DNA of 64,000 nucleotides. Source: Escherichia coli (lineage in GTDB: Bacteria; Pseudomonadota; Gammaproteobacteria; Enterobacterales; Enterobacteriaceae). The stretch is from the NCBI RefSeq assembly GCF_013315695.1, contig NZ_CP054353.1; one strand, 5' to 3'. Position 1 is the stretch's first letter. Each line of letters opens with the position of its first letter. Below the pieces are notes generated by a model. That model was not told the DNA's origin, ran no database searches, and worked only from the letters and a program-made list of their open reading frames with translations. Both the position numbers and the translations under genes were made by a program. Positions 40,601 through 53,050 of the stretch are shown here, piece after piece.

Positions 40601-41431
40601 TTGAAATCATTATTCAATCGGTTAACGGGAAAAGCGGTTAGCCGGACAGCTTTCGTCGAACATCTTGGTCATGAAGTTGTACAACATCATCCAAACTGGA
40701 AAGTCATGATTTCGACTGACCATAAATTGATGCGCATTGATACGGGTCACCAAACGGTGGAAATCACTCTTGATGATGCCTACAAACGTTATCAAGCCGC
40801 ACCAGACCCGCTGGAAGAAGTGGCTGCAGATATGCTGAAACAGCTTGCAGAAATGCTGCCGACCGGGCGCTGTATTGTTCCGGTGATTAAAGAAAAAGCC
40901 TGGCTGGATACCGTTCGCCAACAGCTTAGCCAGTATGAATCTGATCCAGAGATCCTCAACGCCTCGCTGGATTTTGCCTGGGAAGACTTTAACGATGAGT
41001 TAATTATCTTGTTTGCTGAAGATGGTAGCGAAACCATGCGCTATCTGATGCGCTACGAAGTGACCATTGACCGCGAACAAGCCATCAATAATTTGAAGCA
41101 AATATTGCCGGAAGTTTCGGCTGAAATCGTTGATACAGGCGCAAACGCTGGAAAAGTTGCCGTTATCTCCGCAGGGGGTACTTATGAGCCCAGTCTGATG
41201 CTCATTGACGATCTTTGGGTGCAATCACCCGATCCTGAATGCGGCGACCTGTTAGTGACTGTTCCCTCCAGAGGAAAACTGTTTTTCACCTACAATGATC
41301 AGCCAGCAAATCTCAGCGCATTACGACAGTTAACAGAACAATGCTTCCGTGAGGATGACCATCCTCTGACAACACAGATATTCATCCGCCGTAACGGTCA
41401 CTTTTATCCCTGGGTAGAAACCTTGCATTAA
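40601..41431 (+). CDS. hypothetical protein, 276 aa (TTG start)
   Basis: Uninterrupted ORF with a plausible Shine-Dalgarno (AGAGAGGGAA) about 10 bp upstream; protein-like composition; no confident family assignment. Confidence 0.55.
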   Translation: MKSLFNRLTGKAVSRTAFVEHLGHEVVQHHPNWKVMISTDHKLMRIDTGHQTVEITLDDAYKRYQAAPDPLEEVAADMLKQLAEMLPTGRCIVPVIKEKAWLDTVRQQLSQYESDPEILNASLDFAWEDFNDELIILFAEDGSETMRYLMRYEVTIDREQAINNLKQILPEVSAEIVDTGANAGKVAVISAGGTYEPSLMLIDDLWVQSPDPECGDLLVTVPSRGKLFFTYNDQPANLSALRQLTEQCFREDDHPLTTQIFIRRNGHFYPWVETLH

Positions 41432-44127: not shown

Positions 44128-44174
44128 TTTGTGATGCGCGGTGTTTTCATCGCGCTTAGCAAAGAACGTAATCA

Positions 44175-44208
44175 ACGCCGGGCCTGTTAACGCTGCCCGG
44201 CGTTTTTA
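44175..44208. terminator. rho-independent terminator after accC (also downstream of the convergent islet operon)
   Basis: CGCCGGGC-loop-GCCCGGCG hairpin followed by T5. Confidence 0.7.
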
Positions 44209-44218
44209 TTGCCGTTAG

Positions 44219-45265
44219 CTAACGGTAGCTTGCAATTTCCGCTTTCAACGCGCTAATTTCAGCATCGCCATCAACAATTCCCAGCTCAAAGCAGTATGTC
44301 TTTGTTTCCCCTGGCTCTATAAAGGGCAGACGCCCCTGCGCTCGTTCTTTATCACGACCGTCAGGAAAACTATTGCTGACCTCCAGCCCCATAACATATT
44401 CACCCGCGCCTAAATTTTTCCAGTGGATAAAGTTGGGTAGCTGCATGGTGTCGAATTTCTCGTAAATTCCCCACCCCAGTTCGGCGTTCACCAGCGCAAC
44501 TTTACTCATCCCCTGACTGTCGCTATTCAACGTGAGATAGTAAACCTGCTCGTCAAAACCGGGCTGTGGGGTACAAATCTCCAGATGACTGGTTAACCCT
44601 TCCGCCGCATGCGGGGTTCGTGGCGTTACGCTTTTAGCCGACAGCAAGATTTCTGCCTGTGGCGATAATAAAGGCCAGCCGTAATTAAAGTGATAAAGAA
44701 TTTGCAGCGGCTGGCGGGTGAAACCATGATTAGTCACCTTGTCTTCAATGCGCAGCACATTTTCGCCATAACGGCAGCGAATGGTCCTTTCCAGCGTCAG
44801 ATTTTCACCGAACAATCGTGTTTCCCGTACTTTGCCATTGATGACAAATTCAATGCCGTCGTCGGTCCGTTCTGTGCGATACCCCACCTCTTCTGCTGGA
44901 GTCGCAGCCAAACGCCCGTGTAACCCCAGCGTTTCTCCGTTATCCTCACAGGGCGTGCCAATGTAGCTAAGTCCGCAGGTAGTCAGTAACCCCGCGTAGA
45001 AGCTACGTAAAAACCCGTTGCCCTGAGACTCAAAAAAAGCGGGGGCGACAATGCCGTTGGGGGTGATAAAAGAGAGCGCAGTATCCTTGTAGCTGGCCCA
45101 TGCAATATCCAGCGCGCGATCTTTTACCACCGTAAATGCCAGTCCCGCACCAGTACGGACATCAAACGCTTCTGTCCCCTTTGCTCTGCCACTACGTAAC
45201 TCATAGTGTTTAATTCCGGCAACCTGCGAGAGATCGCCAATCCACGACCAAATTTCGTTTTTCAT
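44219..45265 (-). CDS. mutarotase-like / DUF4432-like protein (islet)
   Basis: 348-aa ORF overlapping the upstream kinase stop by 4 bp; family assignment from memory only. Confidence 0.6.
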   Translation of the reverse strand: MKNEIWSWIGDLSQVAGIKHYELRSGRAKGTEAFDVRTGAGLAFTVVKDRALDIAWASYKDTALSFITPNGIVAPAFFESQGNGFLRSFYAGLLTTCGLSYIGTPCEDNGETLGLHGRLAATPAEEVGYRTERTDDGIEFVINGKVRETRLFGENLTLERTIRCRYGENVLRIEDKVTNHGFTRQPLQILYHFNYGWPLLSPQAEILLSAKSVTPRTPHAAEGLTSHLEICTPQPGFDEQVYYLTLNSDSQGMSKVALVNAELGWGIYEKFDTMQLPNFIHWKNLGAGEYVMGLEVSNSFPDGRDKERAQGRLPFIEPGETKTYCFELGIVDGDAEISALKAEIASYR

Positions 45266-46224
45266 TGTGCTGCTTCCCGAATGGACATGTCATGGCGCTG
45301 GATGAACGCTTCGATTTCCGCAAGGCGAGACGTTCCCTCCATTGGGCCACGTCGGGTTACCGCCAGTGCACCGCAGGCGTTGGCATATTGTAATGCCCGA
45401 TGGGCGTCAAACCCTAGCTGGCGGCAGGCAATCCACGCGCCACCAAAACAGTCTCCCGCACCGGTCGGGTCAACTTCTTCCACCGGATAGCTCTCAACAT
45501 GAAACTGCTCATTCGCGGAGTAGTAACTGGCACCTTGATTGCCGCGCTTCACAATCACCTCTTTAACACCTTCTTCAAGAAAACCAGCGATTGCACGCTC
45601 CGGTGTCGAGTGTGGCGACAAGAGCAACACTTCTCCCTCGCTGGGCATATAGATATCTGTTAACTCAAGAACAAAGTGGAGGGCGTCACGCATTTCTGGA
45701 ATATCGAGCATCTCTTTCCGAATATTAGGGTCAAAAGAAATAACGCCACCATTCTCTTTTACAATGGTTACCGCTTTCTTTACTGCGTCTACCATATGGA
45801 ATGAAAACAGGGATGAACCCATAATATGAAAATGGGTACAGTCCTTCAGAATATTTTCATCAACATGCTGCGCCGATAATTTACCGCAAGCGGCATTCTT
45901 GATATTAAAAATAAAATCGCGATCGCCAGAGTTATGATAAGTAACAAAGGCACTCCCGGTAGCTTCCAGAGGTAAGACTGAAATCCCCCTGATATCCACA
46001 CCGTCAGCAGCCAGACGATGTATATTAATATCACCAAAGCCATCATTCCCCACACAGCTAATGATGCCGCACGGAACGCCAAGACGTGTCACCTGGTCGA
46101 TAAAAATAGCGGGTGCGCCACTGGGATAAGGGCCGTTCCAGATACCTGGTTGATCAAATGGCTGGCCGATTTTACTCGCCATAATTTCAACCAGAATTTC
46201 TCCAATTGTGAAGACCTTACTCAT
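45262..46224 (-). CDS. PfkB-family sugar kinase (islet kinase 1)
   Basis: 320-aa ORF with ribokinase-superfamily motifs (GG..N.A, DPTGAGDCF anion-hole). Confidence 0.85.
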   Translation of the reverse strand: MSKVFTIGEILVEIMASKIGQPFDQPGIWNGPYPSGAPAIFIDQVTRLGVPCGIISCVGNDGFGDINIHRLAADGVDIRGISVLPLEATGSAFVTYHNSGDRDFIFNIKNAACGKLSAQHVDENILKDCTHFHIMGSSLFSFHMVDAVKKAVTIVKENGGVISFDPNIRKEMLDIPEMRDALHFVLELTDIYMPSEGEVLLLSPHSTPERAIAGFLEEGVKEVIVKRGNQGASYYSANEQFHVESYPVEEVDPTGAGDCFGGAWIACRQLGFDAHRALQYANACGALAVTRRGPMEGTSRLAEIEAFIQRHDMSIREAAQ

Positions 46225-46245
46225 ATGATTAATTCCTTGAAATGA

Positions 46246-47235
46246 TTAGCTGCGTTTTCTTTTATTTCTTACGTCAAAATAAACGGCTACAAGAATGACT
46301 AATCCTTTAACCACCATCTGATAGAAATAGGGAACGTTCATTAAGTTCATGCCATTATTAATAACGCCGATGGTTAATGCCCCGATTACCGTCCCCACCA
46401 CGGTTCCATAGCCGCCGTTCAGGCTGGTGCCTCCCAGTACAGCCGCAGCAATAGCATCCAGTTCGTAGCTCAACGCGGAATTCGGTTGCCCGGAATAGAG
46501 GCGTGAGGCGAGGATCATCCCGCTGATACCTGCCAGCACAGCTGTAATCATAAAGACTTTTATTTTCAAGCGGGTGACATTTATCCCTGAATAAACTGCC
46601 GCTTCTTTATTACCACCAGTGATATAAATCTTTCGTCCAAAGGTTGTTTTAGTAAGAATGAAATGGTTAATCAGCAATAAGATAATTAATATCCAGATTG
46701 GAATAGGTATATAGAGAAATTCTCCATTCCCCAGCGCCAGAAAGGCATCATCTTTAATCATGATGGGCATACCATCGGTCACTATATAAGCGATACCACG
46801 GAAGATCCCCATAGTAGCAACGGTGACAATAAACGACGGGATCCCCGCTATAGCCGTCAAGCCACCATTTATCATCCCCAGAGCCAGGGCTGCAATAATG
46901 GATAATGGGACCAATAAAATAAATGGAATTCCCCATGAAGCCCCAAGCGCAGCAAATGTGCCAATCAATGCAATGGTTGAACCAACCGATAAATCAATAT
47001 CGCCAAGCAAAAGTACGTAAGTCATTCCATAGGCGGTAATTGCAATTATCGAAACCTGAAGAATAATATTAGTAATGTTATTGGCGGTAAAAAAACTGTC
47101 ATTAATAAAACTGAACAGAATGATTAACACCACCATTCCACTGAGGATACCGCCATATTGCCTGAAGACTTTTTTAAAATTATTTGCAATGGGAATTTCC
47201 GAAGGTTTCGGACTGGCAAGAGTTTTCTCTGTCAT
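46246..47235 (-). CDS. sugar ABC transporter permease (RbsC/AraH-like)
   Basis: 329-aa polytopic membrane protein abutting the ATPase gene. Confidence 0.85.
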   Translation of the reverse strand: MTEKTLASPKPSEIPIANNFKKVFRQYGGILSGMVVLIILFSFINDSFFTANNITNIILQVSIIAITAYGMTYVLLLGDIDLSVGSTIALIGTFAALGASWGIPFILLVPLSIIAALALGMINGGLTAIAGIPSFIVTVATMGIFRGIAYIVTDGMPIMIKDDAFLALGNGEFLYIPIPIWILIILLLINHFILTKTTFGRKIYITGGNKEAAVYSGINVTRLKIKVFMITAVLAGISGMILASRLYSGQPNSALSYELDAIAAAVLGGTSLNGGYGTVVGTVIGALTIGVINNGMNLMNVPYFYQMVVKGLVILVAVYFDVRNKRKRS

Positions 47236-48735
47236 TTAACGTACTCCTGTTGCAGCGGTCATTACCTGTGTCTGCGTTAAATTTTCACATGAATAAATAT
47301 CGGCAATCGTTTTATTACGCATTACCACCAGACGATCGCTAAGTGCCATGACTTCTGGCAGTTCAGAGGACACCAGAATAATTGCTGTCCCTGCCGCAGC
47401 CAGTTGACGTATCACGTTATAGATTTCAAATTTTGCGCCGACATCCACTCCGCGCGTTGGCTCATCGAGCAATAAAATACGCGGAGTTTTCTCCAGCCAC
47501 TTCGATAACACGATTTTCTGTTGATTACCGCCGCTCAGTGCTCCCACTGCCTGATGTACAGAACTCACTTTAGTGTTCATTCTGGCAATTGATTGCAGCG
47601 TCTTCGCCTCTTCTTGTCGGTGATTGATAAGTCCTATCCGCGAAGCGTTATATTGAAACGCCACATGGTGCGTGTTCATATTGACGTCGTGCATCAGCAC
47701 TAACCCTTCTTCCTTGCGGTTTTCGGTCACAAAAGCAATGCCATGATCAATAGCCTGTTTGGGATTAGCGATCCTGACTTCCTTACCATCAATCAACACA
47801 GTCCCGTGATACGAAACGAGGCCAAATAGCGCCTTCATCACATCGGAACGCCCGGCCCCCACCAGGCCAAAAAATCCGAGGACTTCCCCCGGACGCACAG
47901 CGAAACTGACCTCTTTAAAAAGCGAAGGATGGGAAAGGTTTTTTACTTCCAGTTTTGCAGGAACATTTTCATCCGGCTTTTCCCCAAGACGTGCTGGCCA
48001 AATATTTTTCATTTCCCGACCAACCATTTGGGCAATCAAATGCTGGATATCACTGTTTTTCTTTTCATGCGTAGCGATATACTCACCGTCGCGGATCACC
48101 GAAATATCATCTGAAATCCGCATAATTTCATCCATGCGATGAGAGATATAAATAACCGCACAACCTCGCTGCTTTAATTTCTCAATAATGTTAAACAGAA
48201 TCTCTGCTTCATTATCACTTAGCGAAGATGTCGGTTCATCCATAATCACGACATCTGCTGCATAGCTTAAGGCTTTGGCAATTTCTACCAGTTGCCTATG
48301 TGCCATCGACATATTGCCGACCATTTCCAGCGGATCCAGTGGGATGCCCAGTTCCGCGAGGAGATTCTGGCAATCTGCGAGCATTTTTTTATCGTTAATA
48401 ATGCCAAAACGTCGCGGTTCATTATTGGCATAAATATTTTCCGCCACGGTCATATTATTACTCAGGCTCAGTTCCTGAAAAATAATCGCAATCCCTAACT
48501 GGCGAGAATGCTGCGGATTATTAATGGTGATGGTTTCACCACGTAGTGTTATCGTTCCCTGGGTTGGCGGATAAACACCGGCGAGTATTTTCATTAATGT
48601 CGATTTACCGGCACCATTCTCGCCTAATAAAGTATGCACCCGCCCTTTACGTAAAGAGAGGGTAATATCTTTTAATGCCTGAACATGACCAAATGTCTTC
48701 GCAATATGCGAAACATCAAGAATAACATCCGTCAT
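47236..48735 (-). CDS. sugar ABC transporter ATP-binding protein, duplicated-domain type (RbsA-like)
   Basis: 499-aa ORF with two ABC cassettes (Walker A GENGAGKST, signature LSGGNQQK). Confidence 0.88.
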   Translation of the reverse strand: MTDVILDVSHIAKTFGHVQALKDITLSLRKGRVHTLLGENGAGKSTLMKILAGVYPPTQGTITLRGETITINNPQHSRQLGIAIIFQELSLSNNMTVAENIYANNEPRRFGIINDKKMLADCQNLLAELGIPLDPLEMVGNMSMAHRQLVEIAKALSYAADVVIMDEPTSSLSDNEAEILFNIIEKLKQRGCAVIYISHRMDEIMRISDDISVIRDGEYIATHEKKNSDIQHLIAQMVGREMKNIWPARLGEKPDENVPAKLEVKNLSHPSLFKEVSFAVRPGEVLGFFGLVGAGRSDVMKALFGLVSYHGTVLIDGKEVRIANPKQAIDHGIAFVTENRKEEGLVLMHDVNMNTHHVAFQYNASRIGLINHRQEEAKTLQSIARMNTKVSSVHQAVGALSGGNQQKIVLSKWLEKTPRILLLDEPTRGVDVGAKFEIYNVIRQLAAAGTAIILVSSELPEVMALSDRLVVMRNKTIADIYSCENLTQTQVMTAATGVR

Positions 48736-48795
48736 AATGACCTCGGTGTCACAACAAAACGTCGATAACGTTTTGTTGTGAAATGAAGATGTTTA

Positions 48796-49686
48796 TCATT
48801 TACCTGTATAAACGCCGGGTTGTACCGGGATCATTTTTTCTACCGGTTTACCATTGAGGTGATCAACAGCGGCATCAATGGCTTTAGCACCCATTTGATC
48901 GGGATATTGCCGAATCACGGCCGCAAACGTTTTTTCACTGTCAACGGCATCACGCGCTTCTTTCATGCCGTCAAAACCAATGATTTTGATGTTGTCGTTA
49001 TGCGCAGATTTCGCTGCGATAACCGCTGCCAGCGCCGCATCATCACCAAAGCCAAACAGACCATTCAGGTTGGCATTTGCCTGCATAATGTTTTGCGCAG
49101 TCGTTAACGCTTCAGCCCGCGTAATACCAGGCTGTTCAGCAACAATTTTAATATCCGGTGTATCGCTTAACCCTTTCTTAAAACCATCAACGCGCGCAAC
49201 CACCGATTGTAATGCCGGATAAGAAATAATGGCTACAGTACCTTTACCATTCAAAAGTTTGCCCATTAACTTGCCTGCTTCAACGCCTCCCGCGTAGTTA
49301 TCGGTCGCAACATGCGATACGACCGGAACGCCTTCCGCAGCGACGTCGACGGTGATAACGGGAATACCGGCCTTATCGGCTTTAATTATCGCCGCCTGGA
49401 CGCCTTTCGAATCGACCGGAGAGATAATAATGGCATCCACTTTTTTAGTAATAAAATCCTCAACATCAGAAAGTTGTTTGTTTAAATCCTGATTGGCAAT
49501 AGAGACACTTAAATTGACATTGTCTTTTTTTGCCTCTTCTTTCATGGCATTCGCAAGATCAATATAGAAAGGATGTTGCTGTGTTAATAATGACGCACCA
49601 ATTTTATACTCTTTTGCCAACGAGCTTTGCGAGAACAATGCCAGGCTCACCAACATAGCTGAACCAAGTAATTTAATATTTTTCAT
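48796..49686 (-). CDS. periplasmic sugar-binding protein (RbsB-like)
   Basis: 296-aa ORF with signal peptide MKNIKLLGSAMLVSLALFSQSSLA. Confidence 0.85.
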   Translation of the reverse strand: MKNIKLLGSAMLVSLALFSQSSLAKEYKIGASLLTQQHPFYIDLANAMKEEAKKDNVNLSVSIANQDLNKQLSDVEDFITKKVDAIIISPVDSKGVQAAIIKADKAGIPVITVDVAAEGVPVVSHVATDNYAGGVEAGKLMGKLLNGKGTVAIISYPALQSVVARVDGFKKGLSDTPDIKIVAEQPGITRAEALTTAQNIMQANANLNGLFGFGDDAALAAVIAAKSAHNDNIKIIGFDGMKEARDAVDSEKTFAAVIRQYPDQMGAKAIDAAVDHLNGKPVEKMIPVQPGVYTGK

Positions 49687-49721
49687 AAATAATCCTCATT
49701 GTTTTTGTAGGGTACAACATC

Positions 49722-50603
<882 letters not shown>

Positions 50604-50917
50604 TTACAAAATGAAGAAAGAGAATCTTCACTTTCATTTTGAAAGCAAACTAGCACAGCAAAAGCGGCAAAAAGCGTGATGCATGTCGAATATCATCAAA
50701 ATAACTTACAAAAAATAACTTAATTTGTTTTTTACTTTGTAAGTGAAACCAATGACACCTCTGCATAAATATGAATATATTCATTTATTTTTCAATGTAT
50801 TAAGCTATTTTCGTTGCGATTTTTGACCCATGATTTTCTTTTCGAATTGTCGATATTATTGAAGGGTAACTTTCAAAGAAAAATACAAGGGGCTATAGTG
50901 TTACGCATTAAAGGCCA

Positions 50918-51748
50918 ATGAAGAGTGTTAACGTGCCGAGAAAATCGTCTAACCTACTGAAACGCAGATTAAAAATTGCAGAAATTGTTGCCGCCCAGGG
51001 TGAAATCAAAGTTGATGACTTATCTGCGCAACTTGGTGTCTCTAGCGTGACGATCCGCGGCGATCTCAGTTATCTGGAGCAACAGGGATATTTAAAGCGA
51101 TCATTTGGCGGTGCTATTGCGACACCACTCTCCTCTGAACCAGAAGCGATACAACCGATCGCGCCGTTGTCTCTGGCACAACAAATGGAAATAGCACGAC
51201 ATTGCGCACGGTTAATTCGGGATCGTGACACGCTATTTCTTGGACATGGGACAATCTGCCGTAAGATCATTCCCTTGCTCAGCGAAGTGAAAAAACTGCG
51301 TCTGATCACCAACGATCCCGAACATGCGCTGCTGGCAAATCAGTTTATTGATGGCGAAATAATACTGGCTGGCAGTGAAATGCTGCGCCCCGATACCGCA
51401 CTGGCCGGAAAACCTCTCGAACAGGCACTTCAGCATTTCACCATTACACATAGCATTCTGGAAATCAGCCATCTGGATGCTGATGGTACTTTAAATATCA
51501 ACGTTCCCAGACTTGCCGCTGCCTGGCAGCTCTGTTTCGATAATGCCCAGAATAAGACGGTTATCGTTGCCGCCGATCCTGCGCCATCAACGGCTGCTAT
51601 CGGGCATTTGCATCAAGCAGAAAATGTGATCGTCAGCCGCAGCATTAACGAACAATATCAGCAACAATTGCAGTCGGCTGATTTCGTTATCCTTTATACC
51701 AGTAATGAGTGCTTTACCTGGTCCAATCGCGAAAGGCTTCAGGAATGA
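50918..51748 (+). CDS. DeoR-family transcriptional regulator
   Basis: 276-aa ORF with N-terminal DeoR HTH (LSAQLGVSSVTIRGDL) and sugar-phosphate-binding C-domain; divergent from the aldolase-ABC operon. Confidence 0.8.
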   Translation: MKSVNVPRKSSNLLKRRLKIAEIVAAQGEIKVDDLSAQLGVSSVTIRGDLSYLEQQGYLKRSFGGAIATPLSSEPEAIQPIAPLSLAQQMEIARHCARLIRDRDTLFLGHGTICRKIIPLLSEVKKLRLITNDPEHALLANQFIDGEIILAGSEMLRPDTALAGKPLEQALQHFTITHSILEISHLDADGTLNINVPRLAAAWQLCFDNAQNKTVIVAADPAPSTAAIGHLHQAENVIVSRSINEQYQQQLQSADFVILYTSNECFTWSNRERLQE

Positions 51749-51758
51749 GAGGGGTTTT

Positions 51759-52715
51759 GTGACAATAACTATCTGCGCTATGGGCGAATTGCTGGCCGAG
51801 TTTTTGTCCCGCAACCCACATCAAAAATTCACTCAGCCTGGGGAGTTTATCGGGCCATTTCCCAGCGGTGCACCAGCAATTTTTGCTGCTCAGGTGGCAA
51901 AACTGTCCCATCGGGCCATCTTCTTCGGATGTGTTGGTAATGATGATTTTGGCCGACTCATTATAGAGCGTCTCCGTCATGAAGGTGTCATTACCGATGG
52001 GATTCACGTTATGAACAATGCCGTCACAGGTACGGCGTTCGTGAGTTATCAAAATCCCCAGCAGCGGGATTTCGTCTTTAATATCCCTAACAGCGCCTGC
52101 GGTTTGTTTACTGCCGAGCACATTGATAAGGATCTGCTTAAACAGTGTAACCATCTGCATATTGTGGGCTCATCGTTGTTCTCATTTCGCATGATCGATG
52201 TCATGCGTAAAGCAATAACGACGATCAAATCGGCTGGCGGAACCGTTTCTTTCGATCCCAATATTCGCAAAGAGATGCTGAGCATTCCTGAAATGGCGCA
52301 GGCCCTCGATTATTTGATTGAATATACGGATATTTTTATCCCCAGCGAAAGCGAACTCCCTTTCTTCGCGCGTCACAAAAATCTGTCAGAAGAACAGATT
52401 GTTAGCGATCTTCTCCACGGCGGCGTAAAACATGTGGCGATAAAACGCGCCCAGCGTGGGGCCAGCTATTACAAGCTTAAAAACGGTACATTACACGCCC
52501 AGCATGTTACAGGCCACGATATCGAAATTATCGATCCAACGGGTGCAGGCGACTGCTTTGGCGCAACGTTTATCACTCTTTTCTTATCCGGTTTCCCGGC
52601 ACACAAGGCGCTGCAATATGCAAATGCCAGCGGCGCGCTCGCCGTAATGCAGCAAGGTCCGATGGAAGGGATATCCTCACTGACTGACATTGAAGACTTT
52701 TTGCAGCAGCACTGA
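51759..52715 (+). CDS. PfkB-family sugar kinase (islet kinase 2, paralog of kinase 1)
   Basis: About 50% identical to kinase 1 over its full length; GTG start chosen after RBS GAGAGGGG and by alignment with the kinase 1 N-terminus. Confidence 0.8.
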   Translation: MTITICAMGELLAEFLSRNPHQKFTQPGEFIGPFPSGAPAIFAAQVAKLSHRAIFFGCVGNDDFGRLIIERLRHEGVITDGIHVMNNAVTGTAFVSYQNPQQRDFVFNIPNSACGLFTAEHIDKDLLKQCNHLHIVGSSLFSFRMIDVMRKAITTIKSAGGTVSFDPNIRKEMLSIPEMAQALDYLIEYTDIFIPSESELPFFARHKNLSEEQIVSDLLHGGVKHVAIKRAQRGASYYKLKNGTLHAQHVTGHDIEIIDPTGAGDCFGATFITLFLSGFPAHKALQYANASGALAVMQQGPMEGISSLTDIEDFLQQH

Positions 52716-52807
52716 ACGGCAATTTTCTGTCAGATTATTTTCCCTGCCTGAAGAGTTGCCGTAGAATTGCCCGTTTCTCGTATCCCCCCATGAGGAGGAC
52801 CCCTTCC

Positions 52808-53050
52808 GTGGACACTCGTTTTGTTCAGGCCCATAAAGAGGCGCGCTGGGCGCTGGGGCTGACCCTTTTGTATCTGGCGGTATGGTTAGTAGCCGCTTAC
52901 TTACCTGGCGTTACCCCCGGTTTTACCGGCTTTCCACGCTGGTTTGAGATGGCTTGCATCCTGACGCCGCTGCTGTTTATTGGACTGTGCTGGGCGATGG
53001 TGAAATTTATCTATCGCGATATCCCACTGGAGGATGACGATGCAGCTTGA
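52808..53050 (+). CDS. yhdT: small membrane protein YhdT (DUF997)
   Basis: 80-aa two-helix ORF with GTG start (VDTRFVQAH), overlapping the panF start. Confidence 0.85.
   Translation: MDTRFVQAHKEARWALGLTLLYLAVWLVAAYLPGVTPGFTGFPRWFEMACILTPLLFIGLCWAMVKFIYRDIPLEDDDAA

Follow-up and report, generated by a model that had tools for sequence, protein, structure and literature searches.

The D-tagatose islet and its two kinases

The DNA analysed here is a 64,000-nucleotide stretch of the Escherichia coli chromosome (RefSeq assembly GCF_013315695.1, contig NZ_CP054353.1), referred to as the window, in which an islet lies between accB-accC and yhdT-panF-prmA-dusB-fis. The accC/yhdT cluster of E. coli Nissle 1917 (EcN) was identified as a D-tagatose utilization locus by Ha et al. 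2022, iScience (PMC9720028), and the gene names tagK, tagR, tagY, tagA, tagB, tagC, tagD, and tagE are those of Park et al. 2025, Microb Cell Fact (PMC12226905). On its minus strand the islet encodes an aldolase, three components of a transporter of the ATP-binding cassette (ABC) type, a sugar kinase (kinase 1), and a DUF4432 protein; on its plus strand it encodes a DeoR-family regulator and then a second kinase (kinase 2). As already published, the islet enables B2-phylogroup E. coli (among them extraintestinal pathogenic E. coli, ExPEC; adherent-invasive E. coli, AIEC; and the probiotic strain Nissle 1917) to use the sweetener D-tagatose for growth.

The kinase pair most probably (roughly 80%) consists of ordinary ancient paralogues within this published catabolic islet, and the similarity of its members is real and far beyond chance. 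Added here are the probable descent of the kinases from two old lineages, not from a duplication in place, and the conservation of tagK with its DeoR partner across tagatose clusters of ABC type and of phosphotransferase system (PTS) type, together with signs of purifying selection and a corrected probable start codon. Together these points offer a testable lead on the role of tagK and bear on the tagatose-inducible expression system built from the locus. The islet and the two kinase genes are placed as follows.

44128-52808: D-tagatose utilization islet, 8,681 bp, 8 genes, between accC and yhdT
45262-46224, minus strand: kinase 1 = tagD, 320 amino acids, PfkB-family D-tagatose kinase, the kinase gene of the ABC-transporter operon
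51759-52715, plus strand: kinase 2 = tagK, 318 amino acids, PfkB kinase, GTG start 10 nt past the tagR stop

Both proteins belong to the PfkB family, with Pfam PF00294 scores of 144.8 bits for kinase 1 and 154.7 bits for kinase 2 (cutoff 25.8). For each, the best family model is the NCBIfam tagatose kinase NF049991, which kinase 1 matches at 413.9 bits, just under the cutoff of 420, and kinase 2 at 345.8 bits, also under it. The hexose-phosphate kinase models TIGR03168 and TIGR03828 give kinase 1 only 46 and 41.6 bits, below cutoffs of 216.4 and 292. Kinase 1 is identical at 317 of 320 residues to the protein of crystal structure PDB 3IQ0/3K9E (“putative ribokinase II”, from structural genomics), and its dN/dS (ratio of nonsynonymous to synonymous divergence) between E. 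coli alleles is 0.01-0.05. In EcN, growth on tagatose is lost when the orthologous gene is deleted (PMC9720028). Kinase 1 corresponds to tagD, which genetics has established as the tagatose kinase of the published islet.

Similarity in protein and in DNA

An earlier note on this DNA had described two PfkB kinases of about 50% identity that bracket most of the islet in inverted orientation. Both open reading frames are indeed present, and BLASTP aligns them with 159/311 identical residues (51%), 67% positives, and an E value of 3e-116; the 51% identity between two “sugar kinases” was already given in PMC9720028. The paralogy extends over the whole length of the proteins and is not confined to generic PfkB motifs. 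Together the genes span 7,454 of the 8,681 bp, leaving one gene (tagE, 44219-45265) outside kinase 1.

The further claim that the resemblance reaches the nucleotide level stands only in part. Antisense frames of the two genes are similar, as had been noted, with 28-44% identity and E values down to 3e-63 in matching frames. A codon-aware alignment gives a real but weak 58% nucleotide identity, distributed over codon positions 1, 2, and 3 as 65, 72, and 37%, while four-fold degenerate sites in identical codons match at 24%, which is the chance level. The longest exact run common to both genes is 11 nt. A blastn search at word size 11 recovers one 288-nt segment (67%, E 1e-20), and between the kinase genes megablast and dc-megablast return nothing in register. 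Because third positions agree at 37% and four-fold sites at chance, the nucleotide similarity is not independent evidence of kinship; it only reflects conservation of the protein.

These figures also bear on whether the segment between the kinases could invert, which the earlier note had rightly thought unlikely. For RecA-dependent recombination the minimal efficient processing segment is an unbroken identical stretch of about 20-30 bp or more, and a repeat finder detects no in-register inverted repeat between the kinase genes. Of the 1,422 E. coli records with a match, 1,419 are colinear with 80% or more of the 8.7-kb query on a single strand, which an inverted 5.5-kb stretch between the kinases would not allow, and the two orientations were not seen side by side in this population. 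With a longest run of 11 nt and such uniform colinearity, inversion at the kinase genes is very unlikely and effectively excluded, the DNA being too diverged to recombine.

Two lineages of kinase

Neighbour-joining trees were built with 100 bootstraps from 331-334 full-length homologues, comprising the best matches to each kinase and representatives at 50% identity drawn from a profile search that was exhaustive. In all replicates (100/100), kinase 2 belongs to a monophyletic group of 120 members, clade B, and kinase 1 stays outside it. The orthologues of kinase 1, found in Klebsiella huaxiensis, Trabulsiella, Serratia, and Yersinia, form a clade of their own in 90/100 replicates. Only 2/100 replicates place them as the sister group of clade B, and none (0/100) shows the orthologues of the two kinases as exclusive sisters.

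Pairwise identities give the same picture. More than 120 cluster representatives, at 89% down to 56% identity, are nearer to kinase 2 than kinase 1 is, and they include proteins of K. huaxiensis, Yersinia, Serratia, Cedecea, K. pneumoniae, Salmonella, Gilliamella, and Orbus. The DeoR-linked kinases of Salmonella, Gilliamella, and Cedecea are 57-61% identical to kinase 2. After its orthologues, the next relatives of kinase 1 are “tagatose kinases” of Caballeronia and Paraburkholderia (58-61%), and in the trees it joins the beta-, alpha-, and other gamma-proteobacterial tagatose kinases. Its lineage takes in transporter-linked tagatose kinases, and kinases linked to ABC transporters are among its nearest relatives. 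Kinase 1 shares 59-61% identity with the Caballeronia and other tagatose kinases, as against 51% with kinase 2. The two copies are not each other’s closest relatives, which a recent duplication within the islet would have made them.

The trees and identities make it highly probable that the kinases diverged as paralogues long ago, inside the tagatose-kinase branch of the PfkB family, and that this split predates the islet. The earlier note’s “old duplication inside the islet” thus holds as to age and true paralogy; its location inside the islet does not, given a clade B found in 100/100 replicates and an exclusive sisterhood found in none.

Residue conservation can be compared across the same tree. 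At least 90% conservation is found in all four groups, spanning both clades, at 79 positions that include DPTGAGDCFG and DPNIRKEML, and these are kept in kinase 2. DPTGAGDCFG, the GAGD-type C-terminal motif with the catalytic Asp, is identical in both kinases. Eight consistent differences separate the clades, mostly hydrophobic swaps (I10L, I14F, M15L, I42A, I55F, K149R, L202F, and E222H), and three further positions are peculiar to the kinase-2 orthologues (D43A, D74E, and S91T). The clade alignment contains no clade-B-specific basic residues that would hint at a phosphosugar substrate.

Genomic context and orientation

The clade-B kinases share a setting as well as an ancestry. All nine examined (9/9) begin 0-13 nt past a gene of the DeoR family. 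In E. coli, K. huaxiensis, and Yersinia, the pair of DeoR gene and kinase 2 faces an operon of aldolase, ABC transporter, and kinase 1. In Salmonella, K. pneumoniae, Cedecea, Gilliamella, and Orbus, a DeoR gene and kinase-2-type gene face a PTS-type tagatose operon without any kinase-1 homologue. That operon consists of a gatY-like aldolase gene, a tagK resembling 1-phosphofructokinase (1-PFK), and tagT with or without tagH; the “tagK” of these clusters is a different gene and not kinase 2. Between the islet aldolase and those of the PTS-type clusters the identity is 68-71%, and between the regulators it is 41-43%. The module of regulator and kinase 2 is the constant element, and the module of uptake and first kinase varies.

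This architecture accounts for the inverted arrangement. The kinases point in opposite directions because the regulator and catabolic operons are divergent, as they also are in PTS-type clusters that lack a kinase-1 homologue. By this comparison, the opposite orientation in all likelihood represents ordinary divergent regulator/catabolic operon architecture and not an inverted duplication.

A more distant example is the metagenome contig L013, in which an ABC transporter (64-71% identical to that of E. coli) is followed by a kinase-1-like gene (58%). This part is convergent with a DeoR gene and a kinase-2-like gene (57% to kinase 2; within clade B in 100/100 replicates). A second kinase from the sister group is likewise linked to an ABC transporter. 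Two further proteobacterial clusters of tagatose/galactitol type, L009 (5-955 and 8001-8933) and L014 (8001-8945 and 11714-12664), each contain two kinases of the family, one following a DeoR gene and the other beside a GatZ-like epimerase and a short-chain dehydrogenase, with a mutual identity of 46-48%. Since each of these clusters carries such a pair, a regulator-linked kinase accompanied by a pathway kinase is a recurring pattern in proteobacterial clusters.

It is very unlikely that, as the earlier note proposed, one kinase gene was duplicated in inverted orientation within the islet and that the copies diverged in place. Full-length paralogues do lie within a single 8.7-kb islet, and in E. 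coli, K. huaxiensis, and Yersinia the orthologues of both occur together and show parallel divergence, kinase 1 being 86 and 74% identical to its K. huaxiensis and Yersinia counterparts and kinase 2 being 78 and 69% identical to its own. However, each kinase has many outside relatives closer than its partner, clade B takes in kinases of PTS-type clusters without any kinase-1 homologue, exclusive sisterhood never appears among the 100 replicates, and synonymous sites are saturated.

Several points also count against the reading preferred here. The trees are of the neighbour-joining type only, and their root depends on PfkB sequences that are distant. Support for just which sequences make up the kinase-1 side (clade A) is poor, at 11/100. 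The duplication may have occurred within a much older ancestral tagatose cluster, both kinase types co-occurring in the distant L013. Linkage to a DeoR gene is not unique to clade B, as kinase-1-side kinases of Caballeronia, Pseudoalteromonas, and contig L009 also follow one, and the conservation of the sugar/ATP pocket is judged from motifs, not from a ligand-bound structure. Because the kinase-1 side is poorly resolved and L013 has both kinase types in a distant lineage, the claim is limited to a split that predates the islet and extends to no precise branching order.

Start codon and conservation of tagK

RefSeq places the start of tagK at an ATG at 51780 (311 amino acids). The GTG at 51759 has a strong Shine-Dalgarno sequence, GAGAGGGG, 4 nt upstream, and the ATG at 51780 is without one. 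Homologues of kinase 2 are 317-322 amino acids long, and the K. huaxiensis gene has an equivalent GTG start and a TTA in place of the internal ATG of E. coli. Because of the Shine-Dalgarno sequence, the homologue lengths, and the lack of the internal ATG in K. huaxiensis, the GTG at 51759 is preferred as the probable start. The RefSeq start would then lie 21 nt too far downstream, with 7 residues of the first beta-strand probably missing from the annotated protein.

Between E. coli alleles, the dN/dS of kinase 2 is 0.04-0.16, similar to that of other islet genes, and kinase 2 is under purifying selection. It is hardly credible that kinase 2 is a redundant, decaying copy: the S88 and H252 orthologues are annotated as pseudogenes (PMC9720028) and tagK is dispensable in a K-12 reconstruction with constitutive operon expression, but these dN/dS values are similar to those of the other islet genes and the gene is intact, with its motifs conserved across Enterobacterales and Orbales.

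Regulation of the islet

Four features govern, or are predicted to govern, expression of the two operons.

50918-51748, plus strand: tagR, DeoR-family repressor responding to tagatose; PF08220 and PF00455
50577-50917: divergent promoter region, 341 bp, 32% GC, with Ptag, Preg, and predicted TagR operators
50603-50621, plus strand: tagO2, predicted TagR operator, exact match to the published CTTACAAAATGAAGAAAGA; sole match in the window
50627-50645, minus strand: tagO1, predicted TagR operator, one mismatch to the published CTTTCAAAATGAAAGTAAA; sole match in the window; overlaps the Ptag transcription start

TagR was shown to be a tagatose-responsive repressor with reporter plasmids in EcN (PMC12226905). 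The same paper mapped the EcN promoters and transcription start sites by differential RNA sequencing (dRNA-seq) and predicted tagO1 and tagO2; the promoters and start sites are placed here by sequence identity. As the mapping gave no more than two transcription start sites for the EcN locus, tagR and tagK constitute a single operon (PMC12226905). Tagatose induces the six-gene operon more than 40-fold to more than 1000-fold in EcN, and tagRK only about 2-fold (PMC9720028).

A 9-mer, TAACTTTCA, occurs with at most one mismatch in 1-3 copies in each of six divergent intergenic regions between aldolase and DeoR genes, as against 0.2-0.3 copies expected. The six regions are those of the window and of L002, L004, L005, L006, and L008, drawn from ABC- and PTS-type tagatose clusters. 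In the window the 9-mer stands at 50628, 50702, and 50867, and the last is the only exact copy in the 64 kb and overlaps the published Preg -35 box. The copy at 50867 may be an additional, autoregulatory TagR site, unlisted in the 2025 paper (PMC12226905).

Possible role of TagK

Published genetics describe the catabolic pathway. Tagatose is taken up via TagABC and phosphorylated by TagD to tagatose-6-phosphate, which PfkA converts to tagatose-1,6-bisphosphate, and TagY cleaves this product into dihydroxyacetone phosphate (DHAP) and glyceraldehyde-3-phosphate; the operon is repressed by TagR until tagatose is present. PfkA supplies the tagatose-6-phosphate kinase step, deletion of the operon abolishes growth of EcN on tagatose, and the six genes without tagRK confer such growth on K-12, B, and W strains (PMC9720028). 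The literature searched reports no function for kinase 2 or for STM3251, its homologue in Salmonella.

The main catabolic flux would not be carried by TagK, because deletion of tagD alone abolishes growth, tagRK is induced only about 2-fold, and six genes without tagRK suffice in K-12. TagK would be an active kinase made with TagR at a low, nearly constant level, most likely acting on free tagatose or a very similar ketohexose. Tentatively, such a low-level tagatose/ketohexose kinase may generate the sugar-phosphate effector, an inducer sensed by TagR, or may scavenge free sugar. Repressors of the DeoR family usually respond to sugar phosphates. A point on the other side is that Park et al. 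(PMC12226905) assume free tagatose as the inducer.

A broader and more doubtful proposal is that the DeoR regulator and kinase-2-type pair could be a sensing module conserved among the tagatose clusters of gamma-proteobacteria and unchanged between those with ABC uptake and those with a PTS. TagK might convert traces of free tagatose into the phosphate sensed by TagR, or might signal to TagR in the manner of yeast Gal3. If this were true, free tagatose would not be the direct inducer, contrary to the current assumption.

Kinase 2 might instead act on another sugar, a rare ketohexose or related compound, and so widen the substrate range of the cluster without a regulatory role. This is possible though doubtful. 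At native expression kinase 2 is unable to take the place of kinase 1 in growth on tagatose, the eight consistent clade differences and three kinase-2-specific positions would suit a changed substrate, and the role of the DUF4432 protein is likewise unexplained. Nevertheless, low expression can explain the failure to complement, both clades conserve the motifs that should line the sugar and ATP sites, and clade-B kinases go with tagatose clusters of two uptake types, linked to the regulator in 9/9 contexts.

It is improbable that the “missing” tagatose-6-phosphate kinase is kinase 2, which would then make tagatose-1,6-bisphosphate in the native host, PfkA being needed only in a K-12 reconstruction that lacks kinase 2. 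The requirement for PfkA was indeed shown only in K-12 with a six-gene plasmid without tagRK (PMC9720028), and the islet encodes no other second phosphorylation step. However, on TIGR03168 and TIGR03828, models for hexose-phosphate kinases of 1-PFK/LacC/PfkB type, kinase 2 scores 51.2 and 49 bits, below cutoffs of 216.4 and 292, compared with its 345.8 bits on the tagatose-kinase model. No new basic residues set clade B apart, and the gene is only about 2-fold induced. In Salmonella, deletion of the 1-PFK-like tagK (STM3254) abolishes growth on tagatose though the kinase-2-like gene remains, and the STM3254 mutant had earlier been reported to be unable to grow on galactitol (PMC7972205). A low-level kinase linked to TagR, acting on free tagatose or a close ketohexose, is the reading of TagK tentatively retained.

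Borders, gene content, and distribution of the islet

Aligned with K-12 MG1655, homology ends exactly at the accC stop (44127) and restarts at 52809, so that the islet stands in place of all 109 bp of the K-12 accC-yhdT intergenic region. Its GC content is 42-50%, and that of the flanks is 50-55%. A search of the borders found no flanking or direct repeats, insertion scars, or mobility genes. The remaining genes of the catabolic operon are listed below; tagE and the kinase 1 gene overlap by 4 nt.

44219-45265, minus strand: tagE, DUF4432 protein, predicted aldose-1-epimerase-like; Pfam PF14486, 348.6 bits; RefSeq “aldose 1-epimerase family protein”; name from PMC12226905
46246-47235, minus strand: tagC, ABC transporter permease; PF02653; RbsC/AraH-like in NCBIfam
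47236-48735, minus strand: tagB, sugar ABC transporter ATPase with two ABC domains; PF00005 in two stretches
48796-49686, minus strand: tagA, periplasmic sugar-binding protein; PF13407; RbsB-like
49722-50576, minus strand: tagY, class II tagatose-1,6-bisphosphate aldolase, first gene of the catabolic operon; TIGR01858, 476.5 bits (cutoff 443.55)

The islet is carried by 1,419 of 5,426 complete E. coli genomes. The islet region is 100% identical to that of E. coli MSB1_4I, which has the same eight genes between accC and yhdT. The allele of the window is rare, with at least 99% identity in only 5 of 1,422 E. coli records. Synonymous divergence (dS) between this allele and other E. coli alleles (L011 and L012) is uneven along 44219-52715, at about 0.12-0.14 in kinase 1 and the aldolase and 0.02-0.07 in the binding protein, tagR, and tagK. 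This unevenness suggests recombination between islet alleles.

Individual strains show further variation. In ATCC 25922 (L011, 120-1165), the DUF4432 gene tagE is annotated as frameshifted, so tagE may be dispensable. The islet of E. coli D72 (NZ_CP035312.1, 482126-491602) measures 9,477 bp as against about 8,700 bp, aligns in two pieces, and has extra feature names; it probably carries an insertion of about 0.8 kb, perhaps an insertion sequence (IS) element. Outside the species, K. huaxiensis (L002, 2287-10960) has the same eight-gene islet at the same accC/yhdT site with 71-92% protein identity. The shared site implies either long residence there or transfer by recombination via the flanking genes.

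The flanks differ from K-12 at two places. Between a yhdH-like gene and accB, an intact open reading frame of 276 amino acids (40601-41431; RefSeq hypothetical protein) stands where K-12 has only a short yrdE pseudogene annotated. The yhdT start at 52808 is GTG (GTGGACAC), where K-12 has ATG, and the region upstream of yhdT is closer to that of the islet-carrying K. huaxiensis than to that of K-12.

Comparison with known systems

The islet agrees with the EcN tag locus (tagK-tagR / tagYABCDE) in its eight genes, their order and orientation, the accC/yhdT site, and both predicted operators. DNA identity of the islet to typical B2 alleles is about 97.7%, and the window allele differs in being rarer, with the 5 of 1,422 records given above. 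The EcN papers (PMC9720028 and PMC12226905) contain no analysis of the relationship between the kinases or of the tagK start codon.

Uptake of free tagatose by an ABC transporter followed by a PfkB tagatose 6-kinase is also the course of the rhizobial tagatose/galactitol pathway, as cited in PMC9720028 for TagABC-TagD-TagE of S. meliloti and for A. tumefaciens. Kinase 1 groups with the kinases of this kind and is 59% identical to the Caballeronia enzyme. The rhizobial pathway differs, according to the same citation, in that a GatZ-like enzyme epimerizes tagatose-6-phosphate to fructose-6-phosphate and no aldolase takes part. The solute-binding protein of the islet is only 29% identical to that of Caballeronia. 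A mosaic origin, in which kinase 1 was brought with its ABC cassette from Burkholderia-like clusters, was considered and is only partly supported, the kinase grouping in that way, the binding protein having this low identity, and contig L013 already having both kinase types in a distant lineage.

The PTS-type gatY-tagK-tagT-tagH clusters that Klebsiella and Salmonella carry (cited in PMC9720028 from Shakeri-Garakani et al. 2004) share with the islet an operon that begins with the aldolase, a divergent DeoR regulator followed by a kinase-2-type gene, and the 9-mer TAACTTTCA. As far as that citation describes them, they differ in that PTS uptake yields tagatose-1-phosphate and a 1-phosphofructokinase-like operon kinase replaces the ABC transporter and kinase 1.

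Yeast Gal1 and Gal3 offer a more remote parallel. One of these paralogues carries the catabolic flux, and the other, Gal3, is without catalysis and tied to the regulator of the same pathway. The likeness would be one of analogy only and not of homology, and unlike Gal3, kinase 2 keeps all of the conserved motifs.

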